The notes beneath the pieces are model-generated. The model worked only from the letters and a program-made list of their open reading frames with translations, ran no database searches and was not told where the DNA came from. DNA of 64,000 nucleotides from Squalus acanthias (Eukaryota), in the NCBI GenBank assembly GCA_030390025.1, contig CM059432.1, positions 63,490,001 to 63,554,000 of the forward strand. The letters are read 5' to 3'. The position numbers and the translations under genes are program-made. Shown here piece after piece: positions 3,989-64,000 of this stretch. Positions within the stretch are counted from its first letter, which is position 1. The number at the start of each line of letters is the position of its first letter.

Positions 3989-4906
3989 CAGTAAACTCTC
4001 GGTTAAACGGCACCTAATTATCCGGAATTCTCTAATAACTGGCAAAATTCAGGAGTAGGTTCAGGAACCCAAAGGTAAGTTTTACTGTATATTTGTGGCT
4101 GTGTAACCAGGGTTCTCGTGCCTTTTGCCGTGTAACCATGGCTCCTGCATCTCTGGTTGTGTAACCGGGTCCCCTGTACCTGTGGCCGTGTAACCGGGTC
4201 CCCTGTACCTGTGGCCGTGTAACCGGGTCCCCTGTACCTGTGGCGGTGTAACCGGGTCCCCTGTACCTGTGGCGGTGTAACCGGGTCCCCTGTACCTGTG
4301 GCCGTGTAACCGGTGCTCCAGCACTTGTGGCCGTGTAACCGGGACTCCTGTACCTGTGGCTGTGTAACCGGGGCTCCTGTACCTGTGGCTGTGTAACCGG
4401 GGCTCCTGTACCTCTGGCCATGTAACCGGGGCTCCTGTACCTGTGGCTGTGTAACCGGGGCTCCAGTACCTCTGGCCATGTAACCGGGGCTCCTGTACCT
4501 GTGGCTGTGTAACCGGGGCTCCTGTACCTGTGGCTGTGTAACCGGGACTCCTGTACCTGTGGCTGTGTAACCGGGGCTCCTGTACCTGTGGCGGTGTAAC
4601 CGGGTCCCCTGTACCTGTGGCCGTGTAACCGGGGCTCCAGTACCTGTGGCTGTGTAACCGGGACTCCTGTACCTGTGGCTGTGTAACCGGGGCTCCTGTA
4701 CCTGTGGCGGTGTAACCGGGTCCCCTGTACCTGTGGCCGTGTAACCGGGGCTCCAGTACCTGTGGCTGTGTAACCGGGACTCCTGGATCTGTGGCCGTGT
4801 AACAGGGCTCTCGTACCTTGGTAGGTATACCTCTCCGTTATCCGGAATTTTTAATCAACTGGCACCATCCCGGTCCCGTAGGTGCCGGATACGAAAGAGT
4901 TTACTG
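3989..4906. mobile_element. Non-autonomous Tc1/mariner (pogo/Tigger-like) MITE
   Basis: Imperfect 28-bp TIRs (CAGTAAACTCT...CGGCACCTA / TAGGTGCCG...AGAGTTTACTG) flanked by TA on both sides (3987-3988, 4907-4908). Confidence 0.8.
4095..4815. repeat. 29-bp minisatellite (~25 copies; consensus GTGTAACCGGGGCTCCTGTACCTGTGGCT) inside the MITE
   Basis: Tandem units are directly visible and explain the repetitive ORFs at 4018..4479 and neighbours. Confidence 0.95.
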
Positions 4907-10883: not shown

Positions 10884-11283
10884 CTGTTATCCATATGAAA
10901 ATCTGTGCATTTATTGCCTCTGGCATTTCTTGCTGAAACATAATAAAATGCCCTGAAATTTGCTTGTGTGTAGTATGTGGAGTTTCATTGATATCAGTGA
11001 CTCTTAGGGCTGGATTTTGTCTTGGGGTCGGGTTGGGGTCGTGTTACCCACATTTCGTGTTGCCCCCCCGACTCCAGGTTAATGTGGATGAATGATGCGA
11101 TTTTAACTTAATTGGCCAATTGAGTTCCAACATGTGGGAACCCATGGCCAATGAGTTATTCCAGTCTGAAAGTCGCCTCCGATGACGTCATCATTGCTGC
11201 TGCATTTAAGGTCTGCAACAAGCCTTGCTTCTTCTGTAGGCTGCCAAGCTTTTGGACCTCTAATCTAAAAACCTGCAGCAGGA

Positions 11284-13207
11284 ATGGCCAGCCAACGTCC
11301 CAGGGCTGCTCCCAGGTTCCATGACGTTGCCCTTCAGGCTTTGGTGGATGGAGCAAGAGCCAACAGGGAGGTGCTCTTTCCCTCCTCAGGGAGGAAGAAG
11401 CCTCCCCAGCAGACAAAGGCTGTGTGGGTCCAGATCGCCCAGGAGGTCACCTCTTTATCATTCACATGCAGAACCTGGATCCAGTGCAGGAAGAGGTTTC
11501 ATGACCTTCTACGTACTGCGAAAGTGAGTATGACTTTCCCTTCATCCTCAATCTGATCCCCATTGCCTCTCCTCACAAGCACTCAGCTTTAGCAACCTCT
11601 TCCTCCATATCCCACTTGACACTGACATCCATGCACCCTTACCCATTCCCTCTCCCTCTATGGTCACATTCACCTTACTATTCGACTATGCAGCCCTCAC
11701 ACTCCCTATCACTGTCATGCTATGAAAACAACTTACAACACACAGGGAGGGCCCTCAGTCTTGCCAGCTCAATCCAACTTTGTCTCCTTCTAAGCATCTA
11801 TGCTATGGATTCTCTACACTCACTCCTTCAATCTCACTCAAACTCCACTTGTCTCCCTCATTGCAGGAAAAGAGAGCTCACAATAAAGGGGAAAGAGCCA
11901 GGACAGGAGGAGGGCCACCCTCATTAGCCCAGCTCACCCCCTGGGAGGATGCGGTCCTGGAGATCGTGGGCGAAGAGGAGGAAACGCAAGTGGGGGACGG
12001 ACAGATGGGTGCATCAGAGCAAGCTGGTGACTGAATAGTGTTCCATCTCTCTCATTGACATTGCATGAGTCGCTGATAATGAATCTGAAGCTCTAACAGA
12101 TGGATTTATGATCATCTGCAATATGCAATGTGCATGTAACCTTGGCATCACATCTCTGACTCTTTCCTTTACTCCCCCACAGGACCATTGCAAGCACCCG
12201 TCCCCACTAGCCAGGAGGAACAGCCTGAGCAGACAAACTCCTCAGAGGAAGCTGTAACCTCTGAGGGCGCAGCGTCAGCAGAACTCAGCGCACCCAGTAA
12301 CAGCGCAGGCACTCACACCTCGGTGGGACCCTCGGGACATGGAGTAGTGTTGTCACCTGGTGTATCACAGCTCACAAGTGAGCATCAGCAGATGGTGGAG
12401 ACAGGGACAGCAGTGGAAAGTCCTAGTCGGAGGGCGCAGGACTCTCCTAGCTCGGCTCAGCTGCATGTCGACCCTCTGCCTCTGGGTCCATCCATAAGAT
12501 CAGCGGTGCTGGGACTCCAGGAACAGATGCAGGAGTCTCTGACAGGTTTTATCTCCAGGGTCGCTGCGAGTGTGGAGCGAATGGAGGAGTCCATAGCGAA
12601 CATGAGCAGAGCCTTTGTGGAGTCATTGGCGCATGAACGCATCACCATGGAAAGGATGGCAACCTCCATGGAGGTGATAAGTCGCCAGAGTGCAGAAAAC
12701 ATGGTGAGTGTTCTGAATAGAATGACATCTCTGGAGGAGCAATGGTCATCTGTTGAACAGAGAAACCAGACCTTCATGGAAGTCCTTCTGAGTAGGACTT
12801 CCAGTACAGATACGGATCCCCATGGCCCCCCTGATGTGCAGCAAGGTGCTCTCAAGCCACTTGCAAGCGCTGAGGTGGACCTGACCCATGAGAGGGATGT
12901 TGGTGGCACACAACAAGGAGGTGGGGGCTCCTCTCCAAGCGCTCACACTTCCATGCCACTGACAGGTCCTCGCTCAGAGCCCCACCAGAGTCCGCACCCA
13001 AGTGAGATCGGCGTCTCAACCCCTGCCCAGCCGCAGGAGCAGCAGACTGTTGCCGAGCCCTCTCAGGTTCGCAACCCCAGAGGACGCCCGCCAAAGGAGT
13101 CGAGACAGGAGCAGCAACAAAGTGAGCAGGGGGCCTCCACTTCTGCTGAAGCCACAGGGGAAGTACCACGTAGGAGCACGTGTAAGAGAAAGAAACTGCA
13201 CAAATAG
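11284..13207 (+). CDS. Harbinger Myb/SANT-like (trihelix) DNA-binding protein; predicted join(11284..11523,11867..12026,12183..13207), 474 aa
   Basis: Exon 1 reads RAAPRFHDVALQALV..W..IA..RTWIQCRKRFHDL. Splice sites are AAA|GTGAGT with TTGCAG|GAA (phase 0) and G|GTGACT with CCACAG|GA (phase 1). Exon 2 contains ERARTGGGPP, the C-terminus is basic (KRKKLHK), and AATAAA lies at 13275-13280. Confidence 0.85.
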
Positions 13208-13464
13208 TCACAAGGGTAGTCACTTGGGTGAATTTTGATGTGTATTGTGAAAAAGCCATCAGGTTTAAAGTTTAAATAAAAACTCTGATGGCTACAGCTG
13301 CAGTTGTGGCGTCTGTCATTTCGCTAATGGGACTTCCACAATGAGGCCTTAGGATAACATGCAATTGTCAGTATGGTGGTCACATTGTTAGGGATCCGCT
13401 GGGTCTGGGCCATTGTCGTAGCTCTGGTAAGAAGCTGCGAGGCAAAAGTGCTTTCTTGTCTAGG

Positions 13465-14718
13465 CTAAGCAAATCTGGCCAAGGTGAGTGCGTTCCTTGC
13501 ATTCCGGGCAGCTATGGTCTCGCGTAATGCTGCCGCTGGTTGAGGGGCCTCTGCAAGTTGTTCATTCTCTCTCTCCTCCTCCTCCTCCTCCTCCTCCTCC
13601 TCATCTGAGGAGGCTATGTGAGGAGCCACTTGGTCCTCCGGCATCTGTAAGCCACGATGCTGTGCCATGTTGTGAAGTGCACAGCAAACCACGACGATTC
13701 TGGAGACCCTGGCTGCTGAGTATTGCAGGGCTCCACCTGATCTATCCAGGCATCTGAAGCGCATCTTCAGCATACCGATGGTTTGCTCGATTATGGCTCT
13801 GGTGGAAATGTGGCTGGAGTTGTAGCTCTCCTCAGCTGCGTATGATGGGCTCCTCAACGGCGTCATTAGCCACGTCTTCAGGGGATAGCTCTTGTCTCCA
13901 AGTAGCCATCCGTGAAGTTGGTCTGGCGGACTGAATAGCGGAGGCACACTAGACTGGTGCAGTATGAAGGAGTCATGGCAACTGCCAGGGTACTTGGCAC
14001 AAACCTGCAGAACTTCCTTGTTGTGGTCACACACTAGCTGAACGTTGAGGGAGTGGAAGCCCTTGCGGTTGACAAAAATACCTGGATTGCGATGGGGTGC
14101 CTTAAGGGCCACATGTGTGCAGTCAACGACGCCCTGCAGCCTTGGAAAGCCTGCCAGATTAGCTAATCCAACCGCACGCGCCGTGACACTTGCTCGATCC
14201 TTGGTGAAATGGATGTGATTGTGCGCGATGGCAAAGAGGGCATCGGTTACCTGTGTGATGCAGGTGTGTGCGGCCGCCTGGGAGATGCCGCAGATGTCTG
14301 CTGCTGATCCCTGGAATGAGCCTGAGGCAAAAAAGTTGAGTGCGGTGGTGACTTTGACGGCCACTGGTAAGGGGCGTCCACCTGGTCCTCTGGGCTCCAG
14401 GTCTTGTTGCAGCATTGCACAGATGTCACCCACTACCTCTCGCGAAAGTCGGAGCCGCCTTTGGCACTGCTGCTCAGACATGTTGAGGTAGCTGACCCTC
14501 TGTCTGTAGACCGTGTTTGGGGGGTATCTCCTGCGCCGATGGCCTTCCATGCGCTGGCCCCTTCTGTCCTGTGCAGCTTCAGGTGGGTGAGCAGCAGCTT
14601 GGCGCTGCTGCTGTTGGTGGTGCTGTTGGTGCTGCTGTTGTTCATGGTTCTGCTGGTGTCGCGGCTGTTGTTCATCCTCATCGGATACCCAGGAGGGAAG
14701 GAAATAAATGGCTCCCAT
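13465..14718 (-). CDS. Harbinger (HARBI1/IS5-like, DDE_Tnp_4) transposase, 417 aa from the first ATG (open frame extends to 14754)
   Basis: Uninterrupted ORF with an HTH-like region ([10 protein letters not shown]) and catalytic motifs [38 protein letters not shown] and [15 protein letters not shown]. Confidence 0.93.
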
Positions 14719-15254
14719 GCCTCTGGTATATGTCTCAGTTGAGGAAGCCCTCAATGAGGGTGGTGAGAGGGGGTTCCCAGGAGGTCACACTGCAGATGGG
14801 TGTGAGGCTCCAAACTTCCAGAGCTGTGGTTATGCCTTCTAAAAGTTCCCCCAGACCTGTTACAACAAAGTCCTGCCACCTGCAATTGATGGCTGATCAA
14901 ATCTCCTATTTAAAGGTTGAGCTGCAGCTGATAGTCAGCAATCCACTTGTGCCCCCGCCAGGTTTCACTGGAGTGTTTCACATCAGGCGTGCTTCACGTG
15001 GGAAAAGGGTTAAACTACCTAAAATGCTTCAAAATGGCATTACTGAGCCACTTTAGGGATTGTTAAGGGCTTTAATGGCCTCACGCGCCTCTTGGAGGTG
15101 GGACGGAGTCGGGAACCCCGCGACCGATTTTGTCAAAATTGCGAGGAGGCGGGTTGGAGTCGGGATGTGATCGGGACCCCCGAATATGCTACTTTAACCC
15201 CCCACACGCCTCCAAACCCGACTCCATGGGTCATTCAAAATCCAGCCCTTAGGA

Positions 15255-17415: not shown

Positions 17416-17980
17416 GTAACAAACTGCTACGAAAACCAATAATAAGAATAAAACCGGACGGACCACTTGGCATCAACCTCGGCATCAGCTACAGACACGA
17501 CAAAGGCACATCCAGCCCAGTCGACCCTGCAAAAACCTCCTTGCTAACATCTGGGGACTTGTGCCAAAATTGGGAGAGCTAGTCAAGCAACAGCCTGACA
17601 TAGTCATACTCACAGAATCATACCTTTCAGCCAATGTCCCAGACTCCTCCATCACCATCCCTGGGTATGTCCTGTCCCACCGGCAGGACAAACCCACCAG
17701 GGGTGGTGTCACAGTGGTATACAGTTGGGAAGGACATTGACTCTGGACCCCATGAAGTCTCATGGCTTCAGGTCAAGCATGGGCAAGGAAACCTCCTGCT
17801 GATTAGTACCTACCGCCTGCCCTCAGCTGATGAATCAGTACTCCACCATGTTGAACACAACTTGGAAGAAGCACTGAGATAGCAAGGGCACAGAATGTAC
17901 TCTGGGTGGGGGACATCAATGTCCATCGCCAAGAGTGGCTCGGTAGCACCACTACTGACCGAGCTGGCCAAGTCCTGAAG

Positions 17981-18183
17981 TTGAGAGGTCGCACAACACC
18001 AGGTTATAGTCCAACAGTTTTATTTGAAATCACAAGCTTTCGGAACTATCGCTCCTTCCTCACCTGAGGAAGGAGCGATAGTTCCGAAAGCTTGTGATTT
18101 CAAATAAAACTGTTGGACTATAACCTGGTGTTGTGCGACCTCTCAATTTTGTCCACCCCAGTCCAACACCGGCATCTCCGCAT
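17981..18183. mobile_element. Penelope-like terminal fragment: perfect palindrome with a minimal hammerhead-like motif
   Basis: Arms 17981-18062 and 18065-18146 are exact reverse complements. TSD CAAGTCCTGAAG at 17969-17980 and 18184-18195. Core CTGAGGA..GGAGC-gata-GTTCC-GAAA. Confidence 0.8.
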
Positions 18184-23334: not shown

Positions 23335-24909
23335 CCCAGGTGAGAGGCTCATGCTGTCCTTTCTCAGGATGACCACATGCCTGTTCTCCTGTCACCTCTG
23401 ATCCAGTGTCTTTATTAGTCCCACACACCCAGCTGGCCCAGACTGCCTCGGTCTATGCCGAGATGCTGCAGTCTGCAGTCGGACTCTAATGGCCCAGAGC
23501 TGCTCAAGTTCGCCTGCCATGGCCATAAAATGCCTTCAGTGGATGATCAGCAACTCCCCACCTCTCAGGCTCCTGTGATAGGAGAAATACTTCGTAGGAG
23601 CACTATAATAGGTCAATGACCACAGAGGCCAGGCAAAAAGGGATTGCACTAGGGTGATTTAATTTCAAAATGAAGAGGAGGGAAAAGTTGTAAAATAAAC
23701 AATGTGCATTGATGTGAAGTAGACAGTTTTTATTTGCTTTGCTTTGTTGTTGGTCTTAATATTCATAGTTATGTAGGAGGAACACCAATGAGGTAGGAGT
23801 GTTAGAGGGCATTCAGAAAGTTGGTGAAAGGAGTGGATCAAATGGTGGGACTGTTGGTGGGTTGGGGGAGGGTTTGCTTAGGAGAATCTCTCCTCAATAA
23901 TATGCTGCCTTACAATTCTGGCAGCTGGTTGTACTGCTCTGCCTGCTCTTCCTCAGCATCTTCTTCTTCCTCATCCCCTTCTTCATCTTGCTCCTACACT
24001 TCTTCCTCCTGTGGCAGCTGCAAGGCTTGGTCCCTCTGAATGGCATAGTTGCATGGCATGCAGAAAACCACTACAATGAGAGCTCTGGTTTGTGTGTGGC
24101 TCTCATAGCATTGACTGATTGATGTTGCTGATGTCACCTGTTGCAGCCTTGAATAATCCTGTAGTATAGAAGATGAGAGCCACCGAAACCTTCATAGCAA
24201 CAGGTTTGTGGTCCAGTGTTTGTGGTCCAGTGTTTGGTGCAATTCCTGCTGCAACAGGTGACATAGGTCACAGGTGATGCGCAGCCTCCTCACATACTGC
24301 TCCTCTGGCGTGTTGAGGTACGACATCTTGTTCTGGAAGACCTGCACTCTGTAATTCCTCCTTTGCCATCTCTTCTTTGACCATGCACAGGTCTGTGCTG
24401 CTGTGCCTGCTGACTCAATGGTAATCCCAGCAACATTCCCATCTTTTCTGGGCCTCCTGCTGCCAATGGAGTCAAACAGTGCAGCTGCAGCCAAAAGTCA
24501 GAAGTCCAACTTCTCTGTAATCTGAGCTACATGCCTTTAAAAATCACCAGTAGCCAAAAACAACTTTTTAGGTACTTACCTTAATGATGGTGGGGACTCC
24601 TTTTTAATGGCACTGCTTCAGTCAGCTTCCTGAATACTGGTGCAATGTTTTTCTGGGTGCATATAAGAAAATGTGAATGAAAGGCTCCCAGGCACCAATT
24701 TAATAAAGAGATCCTAATTCAAGCACGGGACCGCTATTAACATACTTTAATGAGGCCAGCGTGGCAGACGCCTAATATCTGGCTTTACCAATATGGCGGT
24801 GGCTACCTTTTGTGTGCACTTTCAGCATGACGTCTGACTATGAAATTTGTAAATCCAAAGGTGAATTCATGCTCTAAATGTCAGCAGGTCTGAAAGGAAT
24901 TTCTACCCC
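23335..24909. mobile_element. Decayed, internally deleted Harbinger (Myb-gene 3' end on +, transposase remnants on -)
   Basis: The minus strand gives RVQVFQNKMSYLNTPEEQYVRRLR (cf. [21 protein letters not shown]) plus an acidic tail; TIR-like end GAATTTCTACCCC. Confidence 0.65.
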
Positions 24910-27528: not shown

Positions 27529-28591
27529 AATGTTTGGGAAATGGAACACTTTCCAGGTGTCAGCATCAGGCATTAGTGCAAAACATTCCCAGCCAGCTAT
27601 AACAGATTTAGAACAAAGTAAAGCTGCCTCTAATGTGCCTCAACAAAGTGCCTCAGCCCTACTTGAATCAGTATGCCATTTCTGTTCTACAATCCAGCCA
27701 TTTCCGAATGTAATTCTCAGGCCAGTGCCACTAGGAACTAGATTGAGACTGTCCAAACTAATTTTACATAGGACTCTTTCAGCAGCAGATAGAAGAAAGT
27801 TTCACTCATTGATTAGGCTGAATTATGATCCTGTGATGTAAGTTAAATCCTATTGAGATAACTTTATAAAATCGCAATCTCGACACAGAGTCTCACCCAA
27901 TGGGAATGCATATGGGGAATCGGGCAAGTGCTCCCCATGATTTTCCAACCATAATGGATGGAAAGTTGTGGGGCGTGCACACTCAAATTCCCAATATGCG
28001 AGGTGAGGTTCTTTTCTGAAGGCATGATTTCATTAAAGTGCCTTAAATATTATTTAGTGCCATACAGTTCACTTGTGGGTTCTTTTTCAGCATGCTGCTG
28101 TGCTTTCTCAGTCAAATAGCTCTATCCAGAATTGATATTTTTCAGCGTGATTCCTGTTTCTCTCTTTTCTCCCAAGGGTGTTGAGCCATGCTGTGTTATG
28201 GATCCACAAGTGCTGACAGCCCTCCGTTACCTCACTCGTGTAGCCATTTTTCATGGTGAGGCTCGACACTGAAGGGTTCAGTTTCTGAGTGCGTGATGAT
28301 ATAAAAGCGAGCCCTGGGAGCAGGTAGGTTTACCAATCTCAGAGCGGGAGACAGAAGTAAAAAGTAATCGAAGTGTGATGTCACCAGAAAGCAGGTAAGT
28401 GATTGGTTGGTGAGTATTTCTCACTTTCTCCTTTTTTCCATACTTAAATTCTGTGGTTTATAGTTTCTAGAGTCTCTGTGGTGTAGCGGGGACTGCTGTT
28501 AAACAAGGGCCCTTGAGTATATCATTTAATTGAAGTGAAATTGGTGGGATCCATTTAATTTAATTTTAATTAATTAACTAAAGGGTAAGTC

Positions 28592-29542
28592 ATGGCAGGA
28601 GAGCTCCGCTCCGTGATATGCTCCTCCTGCTATATGTGGGAAATCAGGGTCGCTTCCTGTGTCCCTGACGACCATGTGTGTGGGAAGTGTATCCAGCTGC
28701 AGCTACTGATAGACCGCATTGCGGCGCTGGAGCTGCGGATGGATGCATATTGGAGCATTCGCGACGCTGAGAACGTCGTGGATAGCATGTTTAGCGAGTT
28801 GGTCACACCGCAGGTAAAGGGTGTACAGGCAGGAAGTGAATGGGTGACCACCACGCAGAGTAAGAGGTGCAGGCAGGTAGTGCAGGGGTCCCCTGTGGCC
28901 ATCCCCCTCTCAAACAGATATACCACTTTGGATACTGTTGGGGGGGATGACTTATCAGGGGAAGGCAGCAGCAGCCAACTTCCTGGCACCATGGGTGGCT
29001 CTGCTGCACAGGCTGGGAGGAAAAAGTGTGGAAGAGCTATAGTGATAGGGGACTCAATTGTAAGGGGAATAGATAGGCATTTCTGCGGCCGCAAACGAGA
29101 CTCCAGGATGGTGTGTTGCCTCCCTGGTGCAAGGGTCAAGGACGTCTCGGAGCGGCTACAGAACATTTTGGAGGGTGAGGGCGAACAGCCAGTTGTCGTG
29201 GTGCACATTGGCATCAACGATATAGGTAAAAAATGGGATGAGGTCCTAAAAGCTGAATATAGGAAGTTAGGAGGTAAATTAAAAAATAGGACCTCGAAGG
29301 TAGTAATCTCAGGATTGCTACCCATGCCACGTGCTAGTCAGAGTAGAAATAGGAGGATATTTCAAATGAATACGTGGCTAGAGGAATGGTGCAAGGGGGA
29401 GGGATTCAAATTCCTGGGACATTGGAACCGGTTCTAGGGGAGGTGGGACCAGTACAAACGGGACGGTCTGCACCTGGGCAGGGCCGGGACCGATGTCCTA
29501 GGGGGAGTGTTTGCTAGTGCTGTTGGGGAGGGTTTAAACTAA
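28592..29542 (+). pseudogene. CR1 ORF1: N-terminal Cys zinc finger/coiled coil plus SGNH/GDSL esterase; premature TAG at 29435-29437
   Basis: CSSC..CGKC, IGDSIVRG, HIGIND and DGLH. The second copy has W at the stop position. Confidence 0.88.
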
Positions 29543-29543
29543 A

Positions 29544-32522
29544 GTGGCAGGAGGTTGGGAACCTGAGCAGGGAGACAGAGGAAAGGGAAACAAGGATAAA
29601 AGAAAAAGACAGGAGAAAAACAAAAATAGAAGGCAAAGAACTCAACGGTTTAAATCAAACATGGTCACAGTAAATAATAATTCATATAGGTCTGAGAGCG
29701 TTAAAAAAAAAAGCCTGAAGGCTTTGTGTCTTAATGCAAGGAGCATTCGGAACAAGGTGGATGAATTAGCTGCACAAATAGAGGTAAATGAATACGATTT
29801 GATTGGGATTACAGAAACATGGCTCCAGGGTGGCCAAGGCTGGGAACTCAACATCCAGGGTTATTCAATATTCAGGAAAGATAGGCAAAAAAGAAAGGGA
29901 GGTGGGGTAGCATTGCTGGTTAAAGAGGGGATTAGCACAATTGAAAGGAAGGATATTAGCTCTGATGATGTAGAATCTGTATGGGTAGAACTGAAAAATA
30001 ACAAGGGGCAGAAAACGTTAGTGGGAGTGGTATACAGACCTCCAAACAGTAATACGGAGGTTGGGGATGGCATTAAAAGGGAAATTAGAGAAGCATGCAG
30101 TAAGGGCACAGCAGTCATCATGGGTGACTTTAATTTACATATAGATTGGGCTAACTAAATTAGTAAAAATACTGTGGAGGAGGAATTCCTAGAATGTCTA
30201 CGGGATGGTTTTCTGGAACAATATGTCGAGGAACCAACCAGAGATCAGGCCATCTTAGACTGGGTATTATGTAAGGAGAAAGGATTAATTAGCAATCTTG
30301 TTGTATGAGGCCCCTTGGGTCAGAGTGATCATAATATGATAGAATTCTTCATTAGGATGGAGAGTGAAGTAATTGAATCAGAGACTAAGGTCCTGAATTT
30401 AAATAAAGGAAACTACGATGGTATGAGGCACAAATTGGGTAGGATTGATTGGGGAATGCCACTCAAAGGGTTGACGGTGGATAGGCAATGGGAAACATTC
30501 AAAGACTGCATGGATGAACTACAGAATTTGTTCATCCCAGTGTGGCATAAGAATAAAACAAAAAGGGTGACTCAACCGTGGCTAACAAGGGAAATTAGGG
30601 ATAGCATAAGATCCAAGGAGAGGGCATATAAATTGGCCAGAAAAAGCGGTAACCCTGAGGATTGGGAGCAGTTTAGGATTCAACAAAGGAGGACAAAGGG
30701 ATTAATTAAGAAGGGGAAAATAGAATATGAAAGTAAGCTTTCAGGGAACATAAAAACTGACTGTAATCGCTTTTATAGATATGTGAAGAGAAAAAGAGTA
30801 GTGAAATCAAGTGTAGGTCCCTTGCAGTCAGAAGCGGGGCAAGTTATAATGGGGAACAAAGAAATGGCAGACCAATTAAATGCATACTTTGGTTTTGTCT
30901 TCACAAAGGAGGACACAAATAACCTCCCAGAGATGTTGGAGAACATAGGGTCTGATGAAAGGGAGGAACTGAAAGAAATCAGTATTTTCAGGGAAATGGT
31001 GTTAGGGAAATTGACGGGATTGAAGGCCGATAAATCCCCAGGGCCTGATAATCTACATGCTAGGGTACTTAAGGAAGTGGCCCTAGAAATAGTAGATGCA
31101 TGGCTGATCATCTTCCAACATTCGATGGAATCTGGAACAGTACCCATGGATTGGTGGGTAGCTAATGTTACCCCACTATTCAAAAAGGGTGGGAGAGAGA
31201 AAGCGGGGAATTACAGACTGGTAAGACTGACATCGATAGTGGGGAAAATGCTAAAGTCCATTATAAAGGATGTAATAGCTGAGCACTTGAAAAACAGTGA
31301 CAGGATCGGACAAAGTCAACATGGATTTACAAAAGGTAAATCATGCTTGACTAATCTACTGAAATTTTTTGAGGATGTAACTGGGAAAATAGATAAGGGA
31401 GAACCAGTAGATGTGGTGTATTTGGACTTTCAAAAGGCTTTCGATAAGGTCTCGCATAAGAGATTAGCGTGTAAAGTTAAGGCACATGGGATTGGGGGCA
31501 AGGTATTGACTTGGATAGAGAACTGGTTGGTGGACAGAAAGCAGAGAGTAGGAATTAATGGATCTTTTTCCGAGTGGCAGGCAGTGACTAATGGGGTACC
31601 GCAGGGATCGGTCCTTGGACCCCAGCTATTCACAATATACATTAATGATCTCGATAAGGGAACTAAATGTAATATCTCCAAGTTTGCAGATGACACAAAG
31701 CTGGGTGGGCGTGTGTGCTGCGAGGAGGATACTGAGAAACTCCAGGATGATTTGGACAGGTTGGGTGAGTGGGCAGAAGCGTGGCAGATGCAATATAACG
31801 TGGATAAATGCGAGGTTATCCACTTTGGTGTCAAAAACAGAAAGGCAGACTATTATCTGAATGGCAATAGATTGGGAGAAGGGGAAGTGCAACGAGACCT
31901 GGGTGTCCTTGTGCACCAGTCACTGAAGGTAAGCATGCAGGTGCAGCAGGCGGTGAAGAAGGCAAATGGTATGTTGGCCTTCATAGCGAAAGGGTTTGAG
32001 TGTAGGAACAGGGATGTCCTGCTGCACTTGTACAGGCCCTTGGTGAGACCACACCTTGAGTACTGTGTGCAGTTTTGGTCGCCTTATCTGAGGAAGGATG
32101 TTCTTGCCATGGAAGGAGTTCAGCGAAGATTCACAAGGCTGATACCTGGGATGGCAGGAATGACATATGAGGAGAGATTGGGCCGATTGGGCTTATACTC
32201 GCTGGAGTATAGAAGAATGAGAGGGGATCTCATCGAAACATATAAAATTCTGACAGGTCTGGACAAACTAGATGCAGGAAGAATGTTCCTGATGGTCGGA
32301 GAGTCCAGAACCAGGGGTCATAATCTAAGGATAAGGAGTAAGCCATTTAGGACAGAAATGAGGAAGAATTTCTTCACCCAGAGAGTGGTGAACCTGTGGA
32401 ATTCTCTACCACAGAAGGTAGTTGAGGCCAAGTCATTAAATATATTCAAGAATGAGTTAGATATATTTCTTAAATCTAAAGGTATCAAGGGATATGGGGA
32501 GAAGGCAGGTACAGGGTACTGA
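29544..32522 (+). pseudogene. CR1 ORF2 (APE plus RT): single frame with two nonsense codons (30156-30158, 30306-30308)
   Basis: ORFs 29544..30158 and 30315..32522 are in the same frame; motifs LNARS, ITETW, GDFN, SDHN, QHGF and FADD. Confidence 0.92.
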
Positions 32523-35808: not shown

Positions 35809-37285
35809 GGGCTAAAAATTCGTGGGCTTTAGGCCATCCGTTACCATCAAAAAATGGCAAAAGAGGGCAGCCGCCGCTCTTTCGCCAGCTGGTGGCGGGT
35901 CCCGCGGCGTTCTCCATTTTCCCAGGCCCGGCAGCACTGCCGGGAAGATCCATTGCCCTGCAAAGTAAAATGAGGGAGTGGTGACGTCAGTCAGTGGGCA
36001 ACGCCAACTTAACGTCACCACGGCGAACTTGGACCTTTGCGCTGAGTTCAGTGCTGGGTCGTAAGCACGCCAGGTAAACCCAGTATTCAATCAGACTGAC
36101 TGAGACGTTGTCAGCACCTCTTAAAGGGACACACACATCTTTCAGGTAAGTTTGCATTTAAGCTTTTGGACTGGGTTTTTTGATTTTACTGAAGAAATGG
36201 CTTGCTGCAATCGATATTAAAAAATTTAAGTGTGTAAGGAGTGCTGCTGGACATGGATGGTAAAGGAAGGCCTCTGAGAAGACAGAAAATGCTGCAAATA
36301 TTCAGCAGGTCAGGCAACATCCATGGAGAGAGAAACAGAGTTCACTTCTCAGGTCAAGATGCTGCCTGACCTGCTGAGTATTTCCAGCATTTTATGTTGT
36401 CATTTCAGACTTACAGCATCCGCTCACAGAGGGAAGAGGAAGATGCAGAAGAGGAAGGTGCAGAAGAGGAAGGTGCAGAAGAGGAGGAAGCTGAAGGAAC
36501 GATGCAACCCAGACAGCCCCTTTCTGGCTGGTGTGGCAGGGGTAGTCATGCATTGAGCAGTGTGTGAGGCTAGTGGTGCAGTTGGTAGGAGACGGCTTTT
36601 GAAGGTGCATTCACTGACCTTGACCAGTGGTCTGAGGTCATGAAATTCTTTGGGCACTGGAGCCAGGTGGTGGGGGCAACACTGCTGGCAGTAACAGCCT
36701 CGGTGATGTGGTCCCACAACGTTCTTTCTGGAGGGCCTTCTGGCCCCTGTGGGTAGAGGACCTCTCTTGCAGTGTTGAGCTGGAGTTCTGCATGCGAGAC
36801 CCTAGGTGCCCCTTCCCTGGCTTGCTGAGCCATTTGTGTTAGTGCTGAAATACATTTCCCATTTTTTGAGGTTCGAAAGAGAATTCAGCTTTAAGTGCTG
36901 AGACTCCCATTTGGGACTTCTTTTTAATGTTAATATTTTTTAAAAGGCTGTAAGGGCTGAAAACTGCATTTTTTCACTTTATTTTATTTTTTTATTAGTT
37001 CTGAAGGCATTTCCCTTTTAATTACCCACAATTCTTGCGAACTCCATAGCCTCGCTCCCAGAGGCTGTTAGAAGCTGCAACACTGCTCCAGGACAGGAAC
37101 TTCGACTTCCATGCCTGCACTAATGCTGCCAGGAGAGTGTTACACAGTAAGTTAGCGCTGGACTAAAAATCTTTAGCCCCCAGTGTGAATTTTTCTCTGG
37201 TAGCGCTATGTCCATTTTCAGCGACCGTTAACTGGAGTTGCCGGTGACACTGGCAACTCTCGTGGCGGCCACGAATTTTTCCCCC
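35809..37285. mobile_element. Internally deleted Harbinger derivative, related to 41168-44658
   Basis: TIRs GGGCTAAAAATTCGTGG / CCACGAATTTTTCCCCC. The Myb exon-1 remnant on minus reads MAQQAREGAPRVS..LWDHITEAVT..TWLQCPKNF. It shares CTTAAA.GGACACACACA..GGTAAGTTT with 41459-41490. Confidence 0.75.
36281..36422. repeat. Short imperfect palindromic repeat (probably a Penelope-type terminal fragment) nested in the Harbinger derivative
   Basis: AAAATGCTGCAAATATTCAGCAGGTCAGGCAACATC pairs with GATGCTGCCTGACCTGCTGAGTATTTCCAGCATTTT. Confidence 0.55.
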
Positions 37286-41167: not shown

Positions 41168-44100
41168 GGCCGTGAAATTAGGACCTTTAGCGCCAGCCGT
41201 TAAGGCCGGTTTTGTAGAAAAAATGGCGGCCGCCTCGATTCTGCCCGCTTCCGGCCGCCATTTTGGACCGGTCCACAGCGCTGCCATTGCCTGCGCTCGT
41301 CGCACATATTTAAATAATGCAAATCGTGACATCAATTGGCATGCAACGCCTGAATTGATGCACGATCTGTGATTTTTGACGTCTTAATATCGCTCTCTCC
41401 AAACCACGCACGGAAGACCGTGTGTGCAGCAGTACAACAAAGACGCTGCCAGCGCTTCTTAAAAGGACACACACAATTTTGAGGTAAGTTTAGATTTTTG
41501 CTTTTGGACTGTTATTTTTTACATTTTATAGAAGTAGTGGCTTGGTGCAATACATGTTAAAGGTTTTTTAGGTGTGCAGGGCGTGCTGCTGGACATTTGT
41601 AAGGTTTTGACTATTAAAGGAAAGCCTCTGAGAAGATCACTTGCTCCCAGTGCTGGGGGCTCTAGTTGCAGTCCCCCTTGGGCTGCAGCATGACATGAAG
41701 TTGCAGCAGACGCAGCAAAGGCGACAAGCTTCTCACAGAGGGAGGAGGAGGAAGCAGAAGAGGAGGAAGCAGAAGAGGAGAAGCAGAAGAAGAAAAAGCA
41801 GAAGGAAGGAGGTAACCAAGACAGCCCCTTTCTGGCCAGGATAGCTGTGATCGCAGCATCAGTCTGTTCGCTGTGCACACGGCAGTCCGGCAGGTCACTG
41901 ATGCACGGTTTGCGAGACTTCAACAGTTCATTACCTTCCCCATGGAGGCTGACAAGGAGGAAGAAAGAGCACTGGGATATGCCCACATTGCTGGATTCCC
42001 ACAGGTGCGGGACTCCACAGACTGCATGCAAATAGGCCTGCGTGCTCCCCGTCATAAACCAGCACTGTTTCTCAACATGAAGGGCTTCCATTAGCTCAAT
42101 GTTCAACTTGTCATGCAGGTCTGTGCCTAGTTTCCTGGCAGTAGTCAAAACGCTTTCATACTGCACCAGTCCTCAATACCCAAACCATTGGGTGACAGAC
42201 TCACTGCTGAGGGACAAGAGCTATCCCCTCACCGACTGGCTCATGACTCTTGTCAGGAACGCGGGCACAGATGCAGAGCACTGATATAATGAGAGCCATG
42301 CAGCAACAAGGGTTCTTGTTGAGCAGACCATTGGCATCCTGAAACAAACCATCCCCTGCCCAGAGCACCAACATTCCCTCCTTCTGATTGACCCAGTCCC
42401 GGACACCCACCATATCAATGACCTCAAACAGTACAACTTCATGGGTGTTCCTGTTACATAACTAAGATTATGAAGACCAACAGCTATACCAAAACAAAAC
42501 ATTTTTACTTCCAACAGACCCCATTCCTGATTTCACAAATGGTTACATGACTGCTACATATCTATACATCACCCTTGTGCAAAACCGTAGTGCCTGTTTT
42601 GCATGCTTTTTTACCTATTCTAATACTCCTACGAGGTGGTTTACTAGGTGGCTACAGCTTGGGAGGTGGGAAGCTTGCGCTGAGGGCACTTGAGATTTCC
42701 ATGGTGGGCGGCCTCGAGGCGCTCTGGCTGTTGGCGACCTGGCTGCAGACTTCTGGGACTCGGCTTCGGCCAGGGCAGTTTGGCCCAACTGCCTGTCTGG
42801 CACCAACAAGGGCACTGGTTGAGAAGCTGGCGGGTGAGCAGGCGTGCTGTCATCCTGAGAGAGGACAGCAGGTGCCTCTCCCATGGAGCCATTGCCACTC
42901 TCAGTGTGCTGAGCCTTAGTACTCCCACTGCTCTGTGCAAGAACTTTGAAGGTGTGCTGGGAGGCTCTCAAAACCCCTAACTAGGCTCTCCTCCAGGCTT
43001 TGTAAACCAGAGGAGATGCTGGGCCCCAGAGCCAAGATGTCAGCAGTCTGAGCTCCTATCAAAGCTGTCAGAGCTGTTATCAGAGGTTCCATCACTGTGG
43101 GTCCCCCTGCAGTGTTCATAGAGCTGACCACTCACTCCATGGTTGACTGCATGGTCTCGATCCCGTGTGTGAAGACATCACACAAGTTGGAGCTGGACTC
43201 CTCCATGCTCTCTGACATTGTGCATAAACTCGCAGGCAGACATCCCAGTGCACTTATAAAGTCTCTGTGGATTGCCATCAGTCTTCTTATGTATGATGGG
43301 GCCTCAATGTTTTCATCTGTACTCTGTGCAGCAGAGCTAGGTGGCGAGCTCTCCCTCTGGTGAGCTGTTTCCTGGCCCATGCTATCACACTGCCCTTGCT
43401 CCTGCGCCCTAGTGCTGGGTGCTTCTCAACTGCAGCCTACCCTCTGAACTACACATTGTGCCAGTCTCTGAGCTGATGCAACTGTAGGTCAAATGACAGC
43501 TCCTGTTGTGCAATTCTGTTTTCTTCTTCTTCTGCTTCCTGAGGGCTAATTGGAGCTTCTGGGGCTGAAATGGAAAACAGGACAAGCGTTAGCATTTAGT
43601 GCCATGGGTACGCAGAGACAGATAGCTGGCATCTGAAAGCAGCAATAATTTGTCGTGAATCATGTGTAAGAATGCCCTTTAAGTGAGAAAGGAAGGAAGG
43701 AAAGATGGTTTAATACCCTGCAGTACTGCTCCTGCAACCTCACCAGACACCACACTCCTGACACGCCCCCTGCCCACTTTCAAGTGCACGGATGAATCGT
43801 GGCCCTCCTCCTGTGGCTGCCTGCTCCCAGTTATTGTGTGTGAGCTTGGACTGCGAGAAGGAAGTGTGTCAGTGTTAGAGTAGCGAGAAGTTTTGAGGAC
43901 GAGCTTATCAGAGTAGAGTAGTGTTGTTGTGTGAAATATAGCAGAGGTGTGAGGAGGTGAAGGAAGTAATGGTGAAGTGAGTAGCAGGTGCAGAGTGCTG
44001 CAGTGGGAGCAGAAGGAGGTGGAGTGAAGTGTGCTACATTGATGGCAGGAGAGTGCTGGTAATCGGAGGAGGGAAGGGTTGTGAGTGCTGGGGCAACAGA

Positions 44101-44658
44101 TAGTGCAAGGCTAAGCAGAGAATAATGAGAGATATGAGTTAGGAGGCTTAGCTTAGCTATCCTCGTGAGGTCATTAAACATTTTTTGGCATTGCAGCCGT
44201 GTCCTGTAGACAATGCTTCTGGCACTCACGCGCTCTGCGACCTCTGCCCACTTGTGCCGGGCTGTATGACTGGATATCTTCCTACTGCCTGGTGGATAAA
44301 ACATTTTCCATCCTCCTGCCAACCTCCTGCAGCAAAACCTGCAACAAAGCATCCAAAAACCTTGCAGCTTCTGCTGTGCCTGCTATTGTCCACAATCTTC
44401 CCTGACAGTTGCTGCAGCCAAAAGCACCTCCCCTTTAAGAGGTGCAGGCTGCCTTTAACTGGCATCAGTAACATGGGAAACTGAAGCCCTCGATTCGGCG
44501 AGCTGCCAATAAAAAGTGAGTAGCACTGGCAGCCCGCCCATTTATATAAATTAATGAGGGGCACAATTTTGGGGCTTTCTTTGCGGCTACGTGATCGGGT
44601 GCAAGCTCTGAGCGTGGCACTCATTCTGCGTATGAAAACTTACAGCAATTTCTACACC
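41168..44658. mobile_element. Decayed near full-length Harbinger (transposase pseudogene on +, Myb-gene pseudogene on -)
   Basis: Plus strand: GFPQVRDSTDCMQIGLRAP..NMKGFH*LNVQL, LRDKSYPL..LMT and EQTIGILK. Minus strand: WAEVAERVS..RTRLQCQKMFNDLTRIAK. Worn TIRs GGCCGTGAAATT / AATTTCTACACC with flanks TAT/TGT. Confidence 0.82.
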
Positions 44659-49304: not shown

Positions 49305-52110
49305 TTTCTGTGAAGGTTAACCAGTGCTGTAGGGAGGGTTTAGATTAATTCGCCAGGGGGTTGGGCACCAAGATGTAGTATTAAAAAGTAGAAACAAGGT
49401 GCACAGAGGACTAGGAGAAACAGTTAGAGTTAGAAATAATACAGAATTAGGTGGGATTGTAGAAAATACATAGGCCTAAGTTAGATTTGGAGTGCACATG
49501 TGTAAATACCCGAGTGTGGTTAATAAGGTTGGTGATCTGCAGGCACAAATAGACAAGTGGGAATATGATTTAGTGGTGATAAGGAGACCTGGCTCAAAAA
49601 AGGGGAGGATTAGATGCTTAATATTCCTGGGTACAAGGTATTTAGGAAAGATAGGGAAGGAAAAAAAGGATATGGGGTAGCTGTTTTGATTAAGGAAAAT
49701 ATTACAGTGATAGAGAGAATGTCCTTGAGGGGTCAAAGGCAGAATCTATTTGGTTGGAGTTAAGAAAAAGAGGATCTATTAGCTACATGGTGTATTTTAT
49801 AGGACACCAAATAGTGCGAAGGAGACGGAGGAGCAGATATGCAGGGAAATGACTAAGAGGTGCATGAACTATAGAGTAGTGATAAAGGGAGACTTTAACT
49901 ACCCCATTATTGAATGGGGTAGTGATTGTGTTAAGGGCAGAGAGGGGGAGGAATTTCTGAAGTGTGTTCAGTAGAACTTTCTTTATCAGTATGTTTCCTG
50001 CCCAACGAGGAAGGAGGCATTGCTGGAACTAGTCCTGGGGAATGAAGCAGGCCAAGTGGAGAATGTCACAATTGGGGAGCATCTTGGGAATAGTGATCAT
50101 AGTATCGTAAGGTTTAGATTAGTTACGGAGAAGGACAAGCAGCAATCTAGAATAAAAATACTTAACTGGAGGAGGGCTAATTTCAGCGAATTAAGGAGGG
50201 ATCTGGCCCGGGTAAATTGGAGTTAAAGACTGGCAGGCAGAAACATAATGGAGCAATGGGCTGTCTTTTAAGAGGAGATGGTTCGGGTACAGTCTAGGTA
50301 CATTCCCACAGCGGGGAAAGGGAGGGCAACCAAAGCCAGAGCTCCCTGGATGATGAAAGAGTTAGAGAGTAAAATGAAGCAGAAAAAGGGGGAGCATGAC
50401 AGATGCCAGCTTGATAATTTGACACGTTGGACCCCCTGGGACACATCTCATTGTCTTGGCTGTGCTCTTAGTGTGTCTTTGATGTAGGGAAAGATTTGAA
50501 TAGATTTTGTCTGTGTTTAAATTGTGAATTCTGGGAGATTCTCTCACTGCTAACTTACCTGAGGAAGGAGCGAACAGCTCCGAAAGCTTGTAAAATTAAA
50601 TAAATCTGTTGGACTATAACCTGGTGTTGTGCGACTTCTCAGCTTGATAATTGACAAGGGAGAATCAGACTGAATATTAAAAGTACAGAGGAGAAGTGAA
50701 AAAGGAAATAAGAGGGGCAAAGAGACAGTATGGGAATAGATTGGTGGCTAACATAAAAGGGAATACAAAGGTCTTCTATAGGCATATTAACAATAAAAGG
50801 GTTGTCAGAGGAGCGGTGAGGCCGATTAGGGACCAAAATGGAGAACTATTGGTGGAGACAGAATTCATGGCTGAGGTATTAAATGAGTACTTTGCATCAG
50901 TGTTTACCAAGGAAGAGGACTTTGCCAAAGCCACAGTAAGCAAGGAGGTTGTTGGGATACTGGATGAGATAAAAATAGATAAAGAGCAAGTACTCAAAAG
51001 GCTGGCAGTACTTAAAGTGGATAAGTCACCCGGTCCGAATGGGATGGATCCTAGGTTGCTGAGGGAAGTAAAGCTAGAAATTGAGGAGGTGCTGACCACA
51101 ATCTTCCACTCCTCCTTAGATACAGGGATGATGCCACCGGACTGGAAATGTTACACCTTTGTTCAATAAAGGGGAGAAGGATAAGCCTGGTAATTACAGG
51201 CCAGACATTTTAACATCAGTGGTGGGGAAGCTTTTAGAAACAATAATCTGGGAGAAAATTAAAAGTCACTTGGACAAGCATGGACTAATAAAGGAGAGCC
51301 AGCACGGATTTGTTATGGGCAAATTGTGTTTGGCTAACTTGATTAAGGTTTTGATGAGGTAACAGAGAGGGTGGATGAGGGCAGTGCAGTTGATGTTGCG
51401 TATATGGACTTTCAAAAAGAGTTTTATAAAGTACCACATAATAGGCTTGATAGCAAAATTGAAGCCCATGGGATAAACGGGGCAGTAGCAGCATGAATAC
51501 AAAATCGGTTAAGGGATAGGAAACAGAGAGTGTGGTGAATAGCTGTTTTCGGACTGCAGGGAGGTATACAGTGGAGTTTCCCAAGGTTCAGTACTAGGAC
51601 CACAGCTGTTTTTGATATACATTAAAGACTGGACTTGGGGGGTACAGCGCACAAATTTCAAAATTTGCAGATGACACAAAACTCGGAAGTGTAGTAAACA
51701 GTGAGGAAGATAGTAATAGATTTCAAGAAGAGATAGCCAGATTGGTGGAATGGGCAGACACATGGCAGATGAAACTCAACGCAGAGAAGTGTGAGGTGAT
51801 ACATTTTGGTAGGAAGAATGAGGCGAGGCAATACAAGCTAAATGGCACAATTTTAAAGGGGTGCAATAAGAGAGAGATCTGGGGGTGCTTGTGCGCAAAT
51901 CTTTGAAGGTGGCAGGACAGGTTAACAAAGCATATGGGATCCTGGGCTTTATAAATAGAGCCATAGAGCACAAAAGCCAGGAAGTTATGCTAAGACTGTA
52001 TAAAACATTAGTTCAGCCCCTAGCTGGAGTATTGTGTCCAATTCTGGGCACCGCACTTTAGGAAGGACTTCAAGGCTTTGGAGAGAGTACAGAAGAGATT
52101 TACTAGAATG
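49305..52110 (+). mobile_element. Old, degraded CR1 ORF2 (APE plus RT), 3'-truncated
   Basis: GNSDH, VLNEYFASVFT, KSPGP, SQHGF and LEYCVQF across several frames. Confidence 0.88.
50420..50639 (+). mobile_element. Penelope-like terminal fragment with hammerhead-like motif, inserted in CR1
   Basis: TSD CAGCTTGATAATT at 50407-50419 and 50640-50652; 50557-50639 is similar to 18063-18145. Confidence 0.78.
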
Positions 52111-53839: not shown

Positions 53840-54900
53840 GGGGGTTATTTTAGCCTAAGGGTGAAAACAGGCATTAAATGAGTGAAGTGCTAATAAGATA
53901 TGCCTGTTTCAAAGTCTGGATTTAGCACATAATGTTAGGTCCTATTTGTTGATGACCATAATTTGAACGTGCCTGGAGATGCTAAACAGACACCTGCAGG
54001 TTTAGCACTCAAGCGCTGATTAAACACAATTTTCATGGAGCAGTGTATGTGGGCTTCTTGCACCCACTTCCATTGAAGGTGTGGAGTGCTCTGGCTAACT
54101 CACAGCGGCACGTTGTAGGATGGCTCAGGGACTGAGTGAGAGGGTGCACAGGTTCTCTGATGCGACACTGGAGGTCCTGGTGGAGGAGGTCCAGAGGAGG
54201 GGGGATGTCCTGTATCTGCAGGGGGAGAAGGACGCCACCTCGCCCTCCTGTCCCTCTCTCCTGCAGCAGCTGGTGCTGCTCTGTCTGGCCTCATGTCCTC
54301 CTCCCATTCCTGGTCCAGACCAGGGGAGACCCCTAGCAAGATGCCCATGATCAAGCATTACTTTTCTACTGGTCACTCCTATAATGTGTCCAACAAGGTG
54401 GAGTCGCACAGCACTTATTCTTTTTAGGTGAAATCCTCAGAGAATTTGCGGATTAAATGTTGCTCGAGTGTTGGTGAAGTCTTGACAAAGTGCTCCAGAA
54501 AGTCTCCCAATGTATTTCAGAGGTCCTCTTCACAGCTCCAGCAGCAATGACCATGAAGTGGCAAGTAACCCTTTAAGTCGCACTTGAAATCCACATCAAC
54601 GCTGTGTTTACTCCCAAAGAGCTGGTCGCTGTTAGGAGAGGGCGTTAGTTGAAGTGCTAGCCACAAAAATACCGTGCAGCCTTGTTAATGAGCACTAGCA
54701 GGCATTTTAGGTGGCATTTTAAGTAGCAATCAGCTGTTTAACAAGCCTCTGGGCGGCTGTTCCTAGCGCTGGCTTCAACTCACTTACCAAGATGGCGTCT
54801 TGCACTAAACGTGGGCTAAACCGGTGTTTCAGCTTAAGACCCCATCTTGGCCACCTCTTTACCTCTTTAGCATCTAAAGTATTTGGCGAAAATTGTCCCC
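53840..54900. mobile_element. Internally deleted Harbinger derivative with Myb exon-1 remnant
   Basis: MAQGLSERVHRFSDATLEVLVEEVQRRGDVLY from 54120; worn TIRs GGGGGTTATTTT / AAAATTGTCCCC. Confidence 0.62.
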
Positions 54901-63500: not shown

Positions 63501-64000
63501 AAAGTAAATCCAAACATATTCCGATCCCTACAGGTGGGTATGCGCTGTGTACTCACCCGTAGGGACATCGGAAATGCTGGTTTCAGGCATGCACTGCACA
63601 TGTGCTGGAAACCGGCATTTCCGATCTGTCAAGCAAGCTCTTGACAGATCCTCCGGCTGCCCGGGAGAAGGGCCTCTGCAGGTGGATAGTTCTGCTTTTT
63701 GGAGACCCTCCGCCCGCAGAAAACCCTTACAATTCTTGCGCCTGGTAAAAGCAGGCATTAGGCCTGCTTTTACCAGGATAAGAGTTGAAAAAAGTAAAAA
63801 AAAACATTTTTTTTCACTGATTTATCATTTAAAAATACTTTAAAAAAGGTAAGTTAATTTTTAGCCCTGTAAAAAACTTTAATTATTTTTTTCAAAAATT
63901 TAAATTTTTGTTTAAAATAGTTAATTTATTGTAATTTCAAGTCATTTTAAAAATGTGATTTAAAAAAAAATTTATTTAAAGTTTTACTATGTTTTGGGGG
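63501..64000. mobile_element. Harbinger-type MITE (AT-rich-core family) interrupting CR1 ORF1; runs off the window end
   Basis: Highly similar to 38015-38498. Confidence 0.85.

Follow-up and report, generated by a model that had tools for sequence, protein, structure and literature searches.

Does a structurally complete two-gene Harbinger transposon in a shark genome mark a young and possibly still mobile element, as a first-pass annotation had proposed, or an older copy with its reading frames still open? Harbinger elements pair a transposase with a second protein that is Myb-like, and the element analysed here (11007..15248; 4,242 bp) carries both in two convergent genes. It lies in a 64-kb stretch of DNA, referred to as the window.

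Architecture and classification of the element

The features of the element and its insertion site are as follows.

11004..11006, no strand: left target-site duplication (TSD), TTA, with C before it (sequence inspection)
11007..11019, plus strand: left terminal inverted repeat (TIR), 13 bp, starting GGG (sequence inspection)
11024..11075, no strand: two subterminal copies of a 9-bp motif (CCCGACTCC or a near variant), at 11024 and 11067, in opposite orientations (motif scan)
11284..11523, plus strand: Myb/SANT exon 1, 80 codons, trihelix domain (sequence, profile, homologues)
11524..11866, plus strand: predicted intron 1, GT-AG, 343 bp, phase 0 (sequence; gap-free in 24 of the 39 homologues spanning it)
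11867..12026, plus strand: Myb exon 2 (sequence, homologues)
12027..12182, plus strand: predicted intron 2, GT-AG, 156 bp, phase 1 (sequence, homologues)
12183..13207, plus strand: Myb exon 3 through the stop codon, low-complexity, with a putatively helical middle (sequence, homologues)
13208..13464, no strand: spacer of 257 bp between the convergent genes, with AATAAA at 13275 on the plus strand (sequence inspection)
13465..14718, minus strand (14718->13465): intronless DDE transposase, 417 aa without a stop, triad D199/D275/E311, copy-specific T69 and Y293 (ORF, profile, alignment, model)
15105..15225, no strand: three subterminal copies of the 9-bp motif, at 15105, 15156 and 15217 (motif scan)
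15236..15248, minus strand: right TIR, 13 bp (sequence inspection)
15249..15251, no strand: right TSD, TTA, with G after it (sequence; junction also in run X1)

The perfect TIRs and TTA duplication reported in the first-pass annotation were borne out: the two ends form an exact 13-bp inverted pair (11007-11019 / 15236-15248, GGGCTGGATTTTG) whose match stops at base 14, with TTA at both 11004-11006 and 15249-15251. No other perfect 13-bp inverted pair at 1-10 kb spacing in the 64-kb window is flanked by a TTA/TAA duplication, and within the window the exact TIR sequence occurs at the element's two ends only. Five of the six window matches to the 9-bp motif sit within 150 bp of these ends, and we regard the subterminal repeats as candidate binding sites for the Myb protein. 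The X1 contig at the right junction extends 22 letters inside the element, against a bar of 31 letters for bridging. The joint 10867->15653 in run X16 was considered as an empty site and rejected; an empty site would read 11006->15252, and this joint links two repeats with 21 letters on its short side. No empty-site joint was present among the joints listed, an absence that proves nothing either way. The remaining long coding elements of the window are broken, as had been noted earlier: a LINE frame of 737 aa is the longest and its neighbours are split, and the other Harbinger relics are fragmentary. The relic transposase at 41.8-42.4 kb of the window carries stops.

Short TIRs, a 3-bp TSD, a DDE_Tnp_4 transposase, a Myb/SANT gene and a multi-copy family identify the element as a PIF/Harbinger (PHIS) two-gene transposon. 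Its target reads C-TTA-G and its TIR begins GGG, which is the NuwaII signature, read here from one site with a chance of about 1 in 16 for the C and G. The target and TIR start thus suggest a NuwaII-type target within PHIS. TTA is also compatible with the TWA of narrow-sense PIF/Harbinger. The NuwaII entries of Han et al. 2015 (PMC4482050), among them Harbinger-2_CPB to -5D_CPB of painted turtle and Harbinger-2_BF of amphioxus, likewise have C-TNA-G targets, TIRs of 13-46 bp starting GG, lengths of about 4-5 kb and a DDE_Tnp_4 transposase of about 410-430 aa with a Myb/SANT protein. However, the Myb protein has 474 aa here versus 307-394 in those NuwaII rows, and the 12 species listed there for NuwaII include no cartilaginous fish.

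Other described systems share parts of this design. Harbinger3_DR of zebrafish, as presented in PMC2836001, PMC3016246 and PMC9392472, has the two-protein design and an extended palindromic target preference, but its target core is CWG whereas that of the shark element is TTA; according to the same articles it was mobilised in cells from a rebuilt consensus (Sinzelle et al. 2008). Harbinger-Snek of sea kraits is described in PMC8437027 as similarly high-copy; intact copies with both genes occur (269 in L. colubrina and 1 in L. laticaudata), as do deletion derivatives. In that account it also has RNA support and a clear signal of horizontal transfer (elements of sea urchin are about 90% identical), neither of which was seen in the shark element. 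By its description in PMC3787270, LatiHarb1 of coelacanth is likewise an abundant family of Harbinger elements, in a fish that evolves slowly and belongs to another lineage. Literature searches turned up no curated family of shark Harbingers, and this one may be catalogued in Repbase or Dfam.

The transposase and the Myb/SANT gene

The transposase frame is open over 417 aa with its catalytic residues in place, as first read. The protein matches PF13359 (DDE_Tnp_4; E=1.1e-35, 123 bits, cut-off 24.8), and D199, D275 and E311 are conserved in the homologue alignment; in the predicted structure (mean pLDDT 86.8) D199 lies on a strand and E311 on a helix. Among 77 conserved columns the protein deviates at 5, which is also the median for the 51 homologues with full coverage. 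GDKSY had been put forward as a possible inactivating lesion, but S occupies that position in 10 of 120 homologues and in an old relic of the same window. L185, L194 and V198 were likewise considered as copy-specific lesions, and at most one of them can be, since a multi-copy X16 contig spanning all three differs from the window copy at 1 of 205 bases; A335 may be a further one. A PDB sequence search returned nothing meaningful, and nothing in Foldseek reached E<=0.001, where the rows were weak DDE transposase and integrase matches only.

The three-exon Myb/SANT gene also held up as a prediction. Exons 11284-11523, 11867-12026 and 12183-13207 join in phase at GT-AG sites to give a putative product of 474 aa, which aligns over its full length with shark proteins. 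Exon 1 matches PF13873 (E=8.6e-10, 38.9 bits, cut-off 21.7), and a HMMER library search with it yielded 45 homologues; word-indexed searches with exons 1 and 3 gave no match.

Copy number, holders and divergence of the family

In run X1 the median of the summed contig depth is 3.7e5 across the element versus 13-37 on the unique flank. Depth and numbers of public contigs, taken over four runs, show a high-copy, interspersed family of roughly hundreds to thousands of copies, and it numbers about 300-900 even after a 31-fold overlap correction, an estimate built on contig depth, which is itself no copy number. The family was found in eight coded organisms, seven of them with word shares of at least 0.37 (roughly 97% identity); organism H, at 0.13, was used for the organism count only. 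In small runs the word share is 0.38-0.41 for organisms B, C, D and F versus 0.29-0.34 for organism A, the one with a deep run that matches the element's unique flank. Organism E is a relative, because it covers this flank at >=86% in every bin. Runs X16 and X18 were rejected as RNA: their contigs enter or cross intron 2, X16 covers the unique flank, and the longest records reach 15-16 kb, all pointing to shallow DNA. No splice joint was seen among the 15 of 275 joints listed for these two runs.

The window copy differs from its family by about 0.4-2%; this divergence is low, but near-identity to family copies was not observed. We worked from the best 40 of 441 variant rows, picked for support across runs, 39 of which fall within the element. 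At 21 of these 39 sites at least 95% of the family depth in X1, the best-matching run, has another letter (at least 99% at 17 sites), and the majority letter at copy-specific sites is mostly identical in all four runs. Contigs lose rare variants and only about 55% of X1 was analysed, so "copy-specific" may include a few-copy sub-lineage. Assembly error does not account for these letters because over about 1,980 bp of unique flank just 4 differences from X1 were seen. The copy-specific coding changes comprise 12 missense and 3 silent, where neutrality predicts 76% missense; this ratio looks neutral in a sample biased by selection for cross-run support, which favours conserved (missense) sites. 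At T69 the family letter encodes R, the residue in 65 of 76 homologues, and at Y293 it encodes N, with Y in 1 of 119 homologues; Y293 directly precedes the predicted helix 294-320 that bears E311. CpG losses make up 5 of the 39 listed differences from the family. The earlier statement that CpGs are retained was too strong, given a CpG obs/exp of 0.41 in the element versus 0.36 in the window outside it and a range of 0.20 to 0.72 among 2-kb bins of the 64-kb window.

Age, mobility and significance

Whale shark and zebra shark differ by a dS of 0.06-0.11 across about 50 My (PMC13100897). On this clock, whose rate is taken from other sharks, 0.5% divergence equals 4.5-8 My and 1.6% equals 14-26 My, and the 0.4-2% of the window copy would mean millions of years. 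In a model that assumes neutrality and indels at one tenth of substitutions, the probability that neither the two frames nor the splice sites are lost comes to 0.23, 0.05 and 0.009 for divergences of 0.5%, 1% and 1.6%, respectively. Given these low values, intactness points to the low end of the divergence range or to a recently active sub-lineage.

We think it likely that this full-length autonomous-type PIF/Harbinger (PHIS) element with a NuwaII-type target is an ageing copy of a high-copy family, most probably immobile or weakened and not a current source. The proposal of a young, possibly still mobile element sits poorly with the copy's own substitutions, which look neutral in their ratio and include two at constrained positions of the transposase, with the similar word shares in other organisms and with the slow evolution of sharks. 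The window copy would have inserted while the high-copy family was expanding, a process that probably started earlier than the separation of several related species, and since its insertion it may have accumulated about 0.4-2% neutral substitutions. That its frames are still open would be due in large part to the slow mutation of sharks and to the escape of a few among very many copies from stops. By analogy, the spliced Myb/SANT protein would bind the element's ends, with the 9-bp subterminal repeats as candidate sites, and would also bind the transposase and escort it to the nucleus; this DDE enzyme would then excise the element and place it at a weakly palindromic TNA target, with 3 bp duplicated.

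Rather than ageing, the window copy could come from a small sub-lineage whose activity is recent or continuing; the copy's departures from the majority would then be tolerated, and it could move itself or the numerous non-autonomous derivatives. The catalytic triad, frames, splice dinucleotides, TIRs and TSD are all intact, which is improbable beyond 1% neutral decay, the multi-copy X16 contig is only one base off, and non-majority letters at eight X1 sites leave 141-1,147 depth units that could be a few sister copies. Against this, leftover X1 depth at five sites is 0-37, the single-copy level or below; the window letters at 14513, 14005, 12752 and 11756, among others, occur on no contig of the entire X16 run; CpG losses are seen; and every one of the four transposase changes that clear the 95% bar is missense (P=0.02-0.06 under dN/dS 0.2-0.3, in the same biased sample). 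We regard such a sub-lineage as unlikely, and the wider proposal of a long-lived shark Harbinger/NuwaII family that is still transposing, with the window copy in a live sub-lineage driving species-specific deletion derivatives, as slightly more doubtful.

Horizontal transfer, into the lineage or between shark lineages, would explain the low divergence across the organisms that hold the family, seven of the eight at the high word shares given above, and it has Harbinger precedents in salmonid/carp (PMC9179366) and, as described in PMC8437027, in sea kraits. Yet the best of 351 protein matches to the transposase are all predicted cartilaginous-fish proteins at 53-64% identity with none near-identical, a quick tree of 60 of the 120 listed matches (picked for species spread and length) nests it among chondrichthyan proteins (SH-aLRT 98), viral contigs held no relative, metagenomes gave a single 43% match (L001), and organism E, which shares the unique flank, is a relative. 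The nearest sequences are chondrichthyan proteins annotated as "putative nuclease HARBI1" or as Myb-like (Pristiophorus P0004; Heptranchias P0126 and P0125), with identities of at most 64% to the transposase and of 37% and 32% to the element's Myb product over full length; these are separate families annotated as genes rather than elements. The suggestion of horizontal acquisition thus found little favour, and we judge it highly improbable. A domesticated gene pair held open by host selection would fit the two open frames and the apparent conservation of Harbinger-transposase genes in sharks and rays, where 90%-identity clusters span both, but the intact TIRs and TSD, a family of at least hundreds of copies, the neutral look of the changes and the absence from annotated sharks of any orthologue above 64% identity make domestication barely credible.

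Taken as it is, the element offers a reference copy of one shark Harbinger family. No Harbinger was found in elephant shark, and a check of other cartilaginous fishes was called for (PMC9179366), a question that the shark element answers in passing; for whale shark and grey reef shark the Harbinger superfamily is already listed in genome papers. If the live sub-lineage were real, the import would be greater, as the sole vertebrate Harbinger reported in the articles cited above as mobilised in cells is a reconstruction: the element would be a naturally active two-component vertebrate Harbinger and a possible natural vector with a defined target motif. For sharks more generally, the element counsels caution, in that open frames and 1-2% divergence do not amount to recent activity.

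Structure and gene content

The element at 11007-15248 has 13-bp terminal inverted repeats (TIRs) without mismatch, flanked at both ends by TTA, as the first-pass annotation had described, and theirs is the sole TIR pair of such kind within the 64-kb window. Its two-gene content was confirmed as a transposase frame and a predicted Myb/SANT product.

Features of the element
11007-15248, Harbinger element, 4,242 bp
14718-13465, minus strand, transposase, intronless frame of 417 aa (Pfam DDE_Tnp_4, E = 1.1e-35)
plus strand, Myb/SANT exon (PF13873, E = 8.6e-10), predicted to yield 474 aa by GT-AG splicing via two further exons

The target is C|TTA|G, with symmetric flanking bases at 5 of 9 positions. 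Target, TIRs and gene pair fit the definition of NuwaII, a group within PIF/Harbinger, in the available text of Han et al. 2015 (PMC4482050), which asks for a C|TNA|G target, TIRs that begin with GG and span 13-46 bp, and both a DDE and a Myb gene. A 9-bp motif has five copies no more than 150 bp from the element's two ends and one copy elsewhere in the window; these subterminal motifs are candidate sites for Myb protein binding, by analogy with the subterminal binding of Harbinger3_DR. The suggestion that CpGs are retained proved weak, as CpG observed/expected is 0.41 in the element versus 0.36 elsewhere and ranges from 0.20 to 0.72 over 2-kb bins. The spacer between the genes (13208-13464) has AATAAA for the Myb gene and no canonical signal on the transposase strand; a variant AATACA is readable on the minus strand at 13241-13246.

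The transposase retains its catalytic triad, deviates in 5 of 77 conserved columns, just as many as the median homologue, and its structure model folds well (mean pLDDT 86.8). Exon 1 of the Myb gene as a HMMER query found 45 proteins, the predicted spliced product can be aligned over its full length to two proteins of Heptranchias (37% and 32% identity), and the first junction is crossed gap-free in 24 of 39 spanning homologues, so that it is homology that supports the predicted exon structure. X16 and X18, two shallow runs guessed to be RNA, act like shallow DNA, with splice junctions at none of the 15 joints listed of 275.

The window's remaining long coding elements are broken, as first annotated. 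A second, heavily decayed two-gene Harbinger (41822-44310) shares the convergent layout of the element in opposite orientation.

Harbinger-related remnants elsewhere in the window
41822-42416, plus strand, decayed Harbinger transposase with stops and a DKSYP motif
44310-42660, minus strand, decayed Harbinger Myb gene
24021-24401, minus strand, Harbinger transposase N-terminal relic
36642-36833, minus strand, Myb exon relic
54141-54230, plus strand, weak Myb match

CR1-like LINEs are represented by two copies of nearly full length whose frames closely resemble each other (28589-32522 and 60008-63628), both split by stops or frameshifts. A LINE-like stretch holds a 172-bp near-perfect palindrome (17978-18149, 97.7% to its own reverse complement), with relatives near 50541-50645. 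A tandem repeat at 4018-4854, open in all three minus-strand frames (~250-280 codons each), is probably a minisatellite.

Relatives and spread of the family

Our transposase search, run on the 8,000 candidates that shared most words with it, gave 351 matches, of which the best were all from sharks and rays at 53-64% identity, with none closer; the exact protein was absent from the protein collection searched. A quick tree was built from 60 of the 120 listed matches; in it, the transposase fell inside a 33-row group (SH-aLRT 98) of 30 cartilaginous-fish rows, the element's own and two unlabelled rows, both tied to sharks and rays by cluster look-up, with a Pristiophorus protein as its sister. 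Viral contigs held no relatives and metagenomes one match, at 43%. Because best matches and tree neighbours are chondrichthyan, there is no sign, within the protein collection searched, of transfer from outside cartilaginous fishes, and the proposed horizontal acquisition was not borne out. Strong conservation between distant sharks and rays marks several Harbinger-transposase proteins (P0039/P0032, P0001/P0002, P0012/P0016, P0019/P0021), and one 90% cluster of such proteins takes in skates, rays, whale shark, white shark and sawshark; these are candidate elasmobranch-specific domesticated genes.

The stretch was found in 20 sequencing runs, which come from nine studies and represent eight coded organisms (A-H), with a highest word share of 0.63. 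In X1, a run of organism A, four contigs over the right flank show 4 differences in ~1,980 bp, which makes organism A the species of the window or a very near relative; one of these contigs enters the element by 22 letters without a difference. Summed depth in X1 has a median of 3.7e5 over the element versus 13-37 on the flank, equivalent to ~300-900 copies with the largest overlap correction and >10,000 without, although contig depth is no true copy number. Across the family pieces listed, difference from the window ranges from 0.5% to ~14%, so there are several subfamilies. In X16 and X18, depth at the element ends is several times that of the interior, which points to non-autonomous derivatives. 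Family depth falls ~tenfold in X1 at 11218-11426, the Myb 5' region, where X16 and X18 too have some of their lowest bins and small indels lie near 11263-11272; this region may be absent or altered in many copies.

Word share in the small runs is 0.38-0.41 for organisms B, C, D and F and 0.29-0.34 for organism A. The simplest reading is that the family expanded before these species split and was inherited vertically; movement among sharks by transfer is a less likely alternative. In organism E (X9), the interior and left end are deep, depth falls ~30-fold at the right subterminal region (14980-15188), deep internal deletions join ~12536 to 14582 and 11798 to 12399, and unique flank is covered too; over 11793-14584 and 14980-15248, organism E appears to carry a sister or mosaic family that has non-autonomous derivatives of its own.

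State and age of this copy

The variant display, which favours conserved sites, covers 40 of 441 rows, 39 of them used after one flank row was dropped. At 21 of these 39 sites a different letter makes up at least 95% of X1 depth (at least 99% at 17), and the alternative is usually identical across all four runs. The 15 coding cases comprise 12 missense and 3 silent changes, in line with the 76% missense expected without selection; because of the display's bias, this ratio is soft evidence. Two constrained transposase positions are changed: residue 69 is T in this copy, against R in the family and 65 of 76 homologues, and residue 293, directly before the predicted helix carrying E311 in the structure model, is Y in this copy, against N in the family and T/N/S in 104 of 119 homologues. 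The retained triad, the ordinary number of deviating columns and the well-folded model weigh the other way; this copy is probably now immobile or weakened. GDKSY, earlier raised as a possible lesion, is not unique to this copy: 10 of 120 homologues have it, as does a relic in the window.

The 17 sites put divergence at no less than 0.4%; it is ~1.2% (6 of 487 bases) against the two nearest multi-copy contigs and 1.6-1.9% when estimated from word share. Whale and zebra sharks, in the available part of PMC13100897, differ by a dS of 0.06-0.11 after ~50 My, a clock on which 0.5% corresponds to 4.5-8 My and 1.6% to 14-26 My; the epaulette shark mutation rate is given as 7e-10 per base per generation in an excerpt of PMC10587355. 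Under an assumed indel rate, both frames would survive with a chance of 0.23 at 0.5%, 0.05 at 1% and 0.009 at 1.6%, and therefore the low end of the divergence range or a small younger sub-lineage is favoured. Even so, some open-frame survivors are expected among hundreds to thousands of copies. The first-pass interpretation is supported for a complete two-gene Harbinger and not for a young or horizontally acquired one; 0.4-1.9% means millions of years on the shark clock, and a still-active shark Harbinger lineage is unlikely.

Harbinger biology in sharks

Vertebrate intact two-gene Harbingers are already known, and this copy is a new member of that kind, from a shark. The portions available of the sources report 269 intact two-gene copies in one sea krait species (PMC8437027), 22 NuwaII families across eukaryotes in which two frames are intact (PMC4482050), abundant Harbingers in coelacanth (PMC3787270), the superfamily in whale shark and, as one of the most frequent types of DNA transposon, in grey reef shark, and, within the part seen of PMC9179366, no Harbinger in elephant shark. 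Our search of the published literature found no description of this shark family. Naturally active DNA transposons, several from fish, serve as tools (PMC11304231, in excerpt).

Harbinger transposition needs both proteins, the Myb protein binding the ends and the transposase and enabling nuclear import, and Harbinger targets are extended and palindromic (available passages of PMC2836001, PMC9392472 and PMC3016246). The analysis shows directly which parts the element has, how these relate to known proteins, that the family is multi-copy and that this copy carries changes of its own. We infer that the family would have worked by the same two-protein route and would have mobilised its own deletion derivatives in trans.
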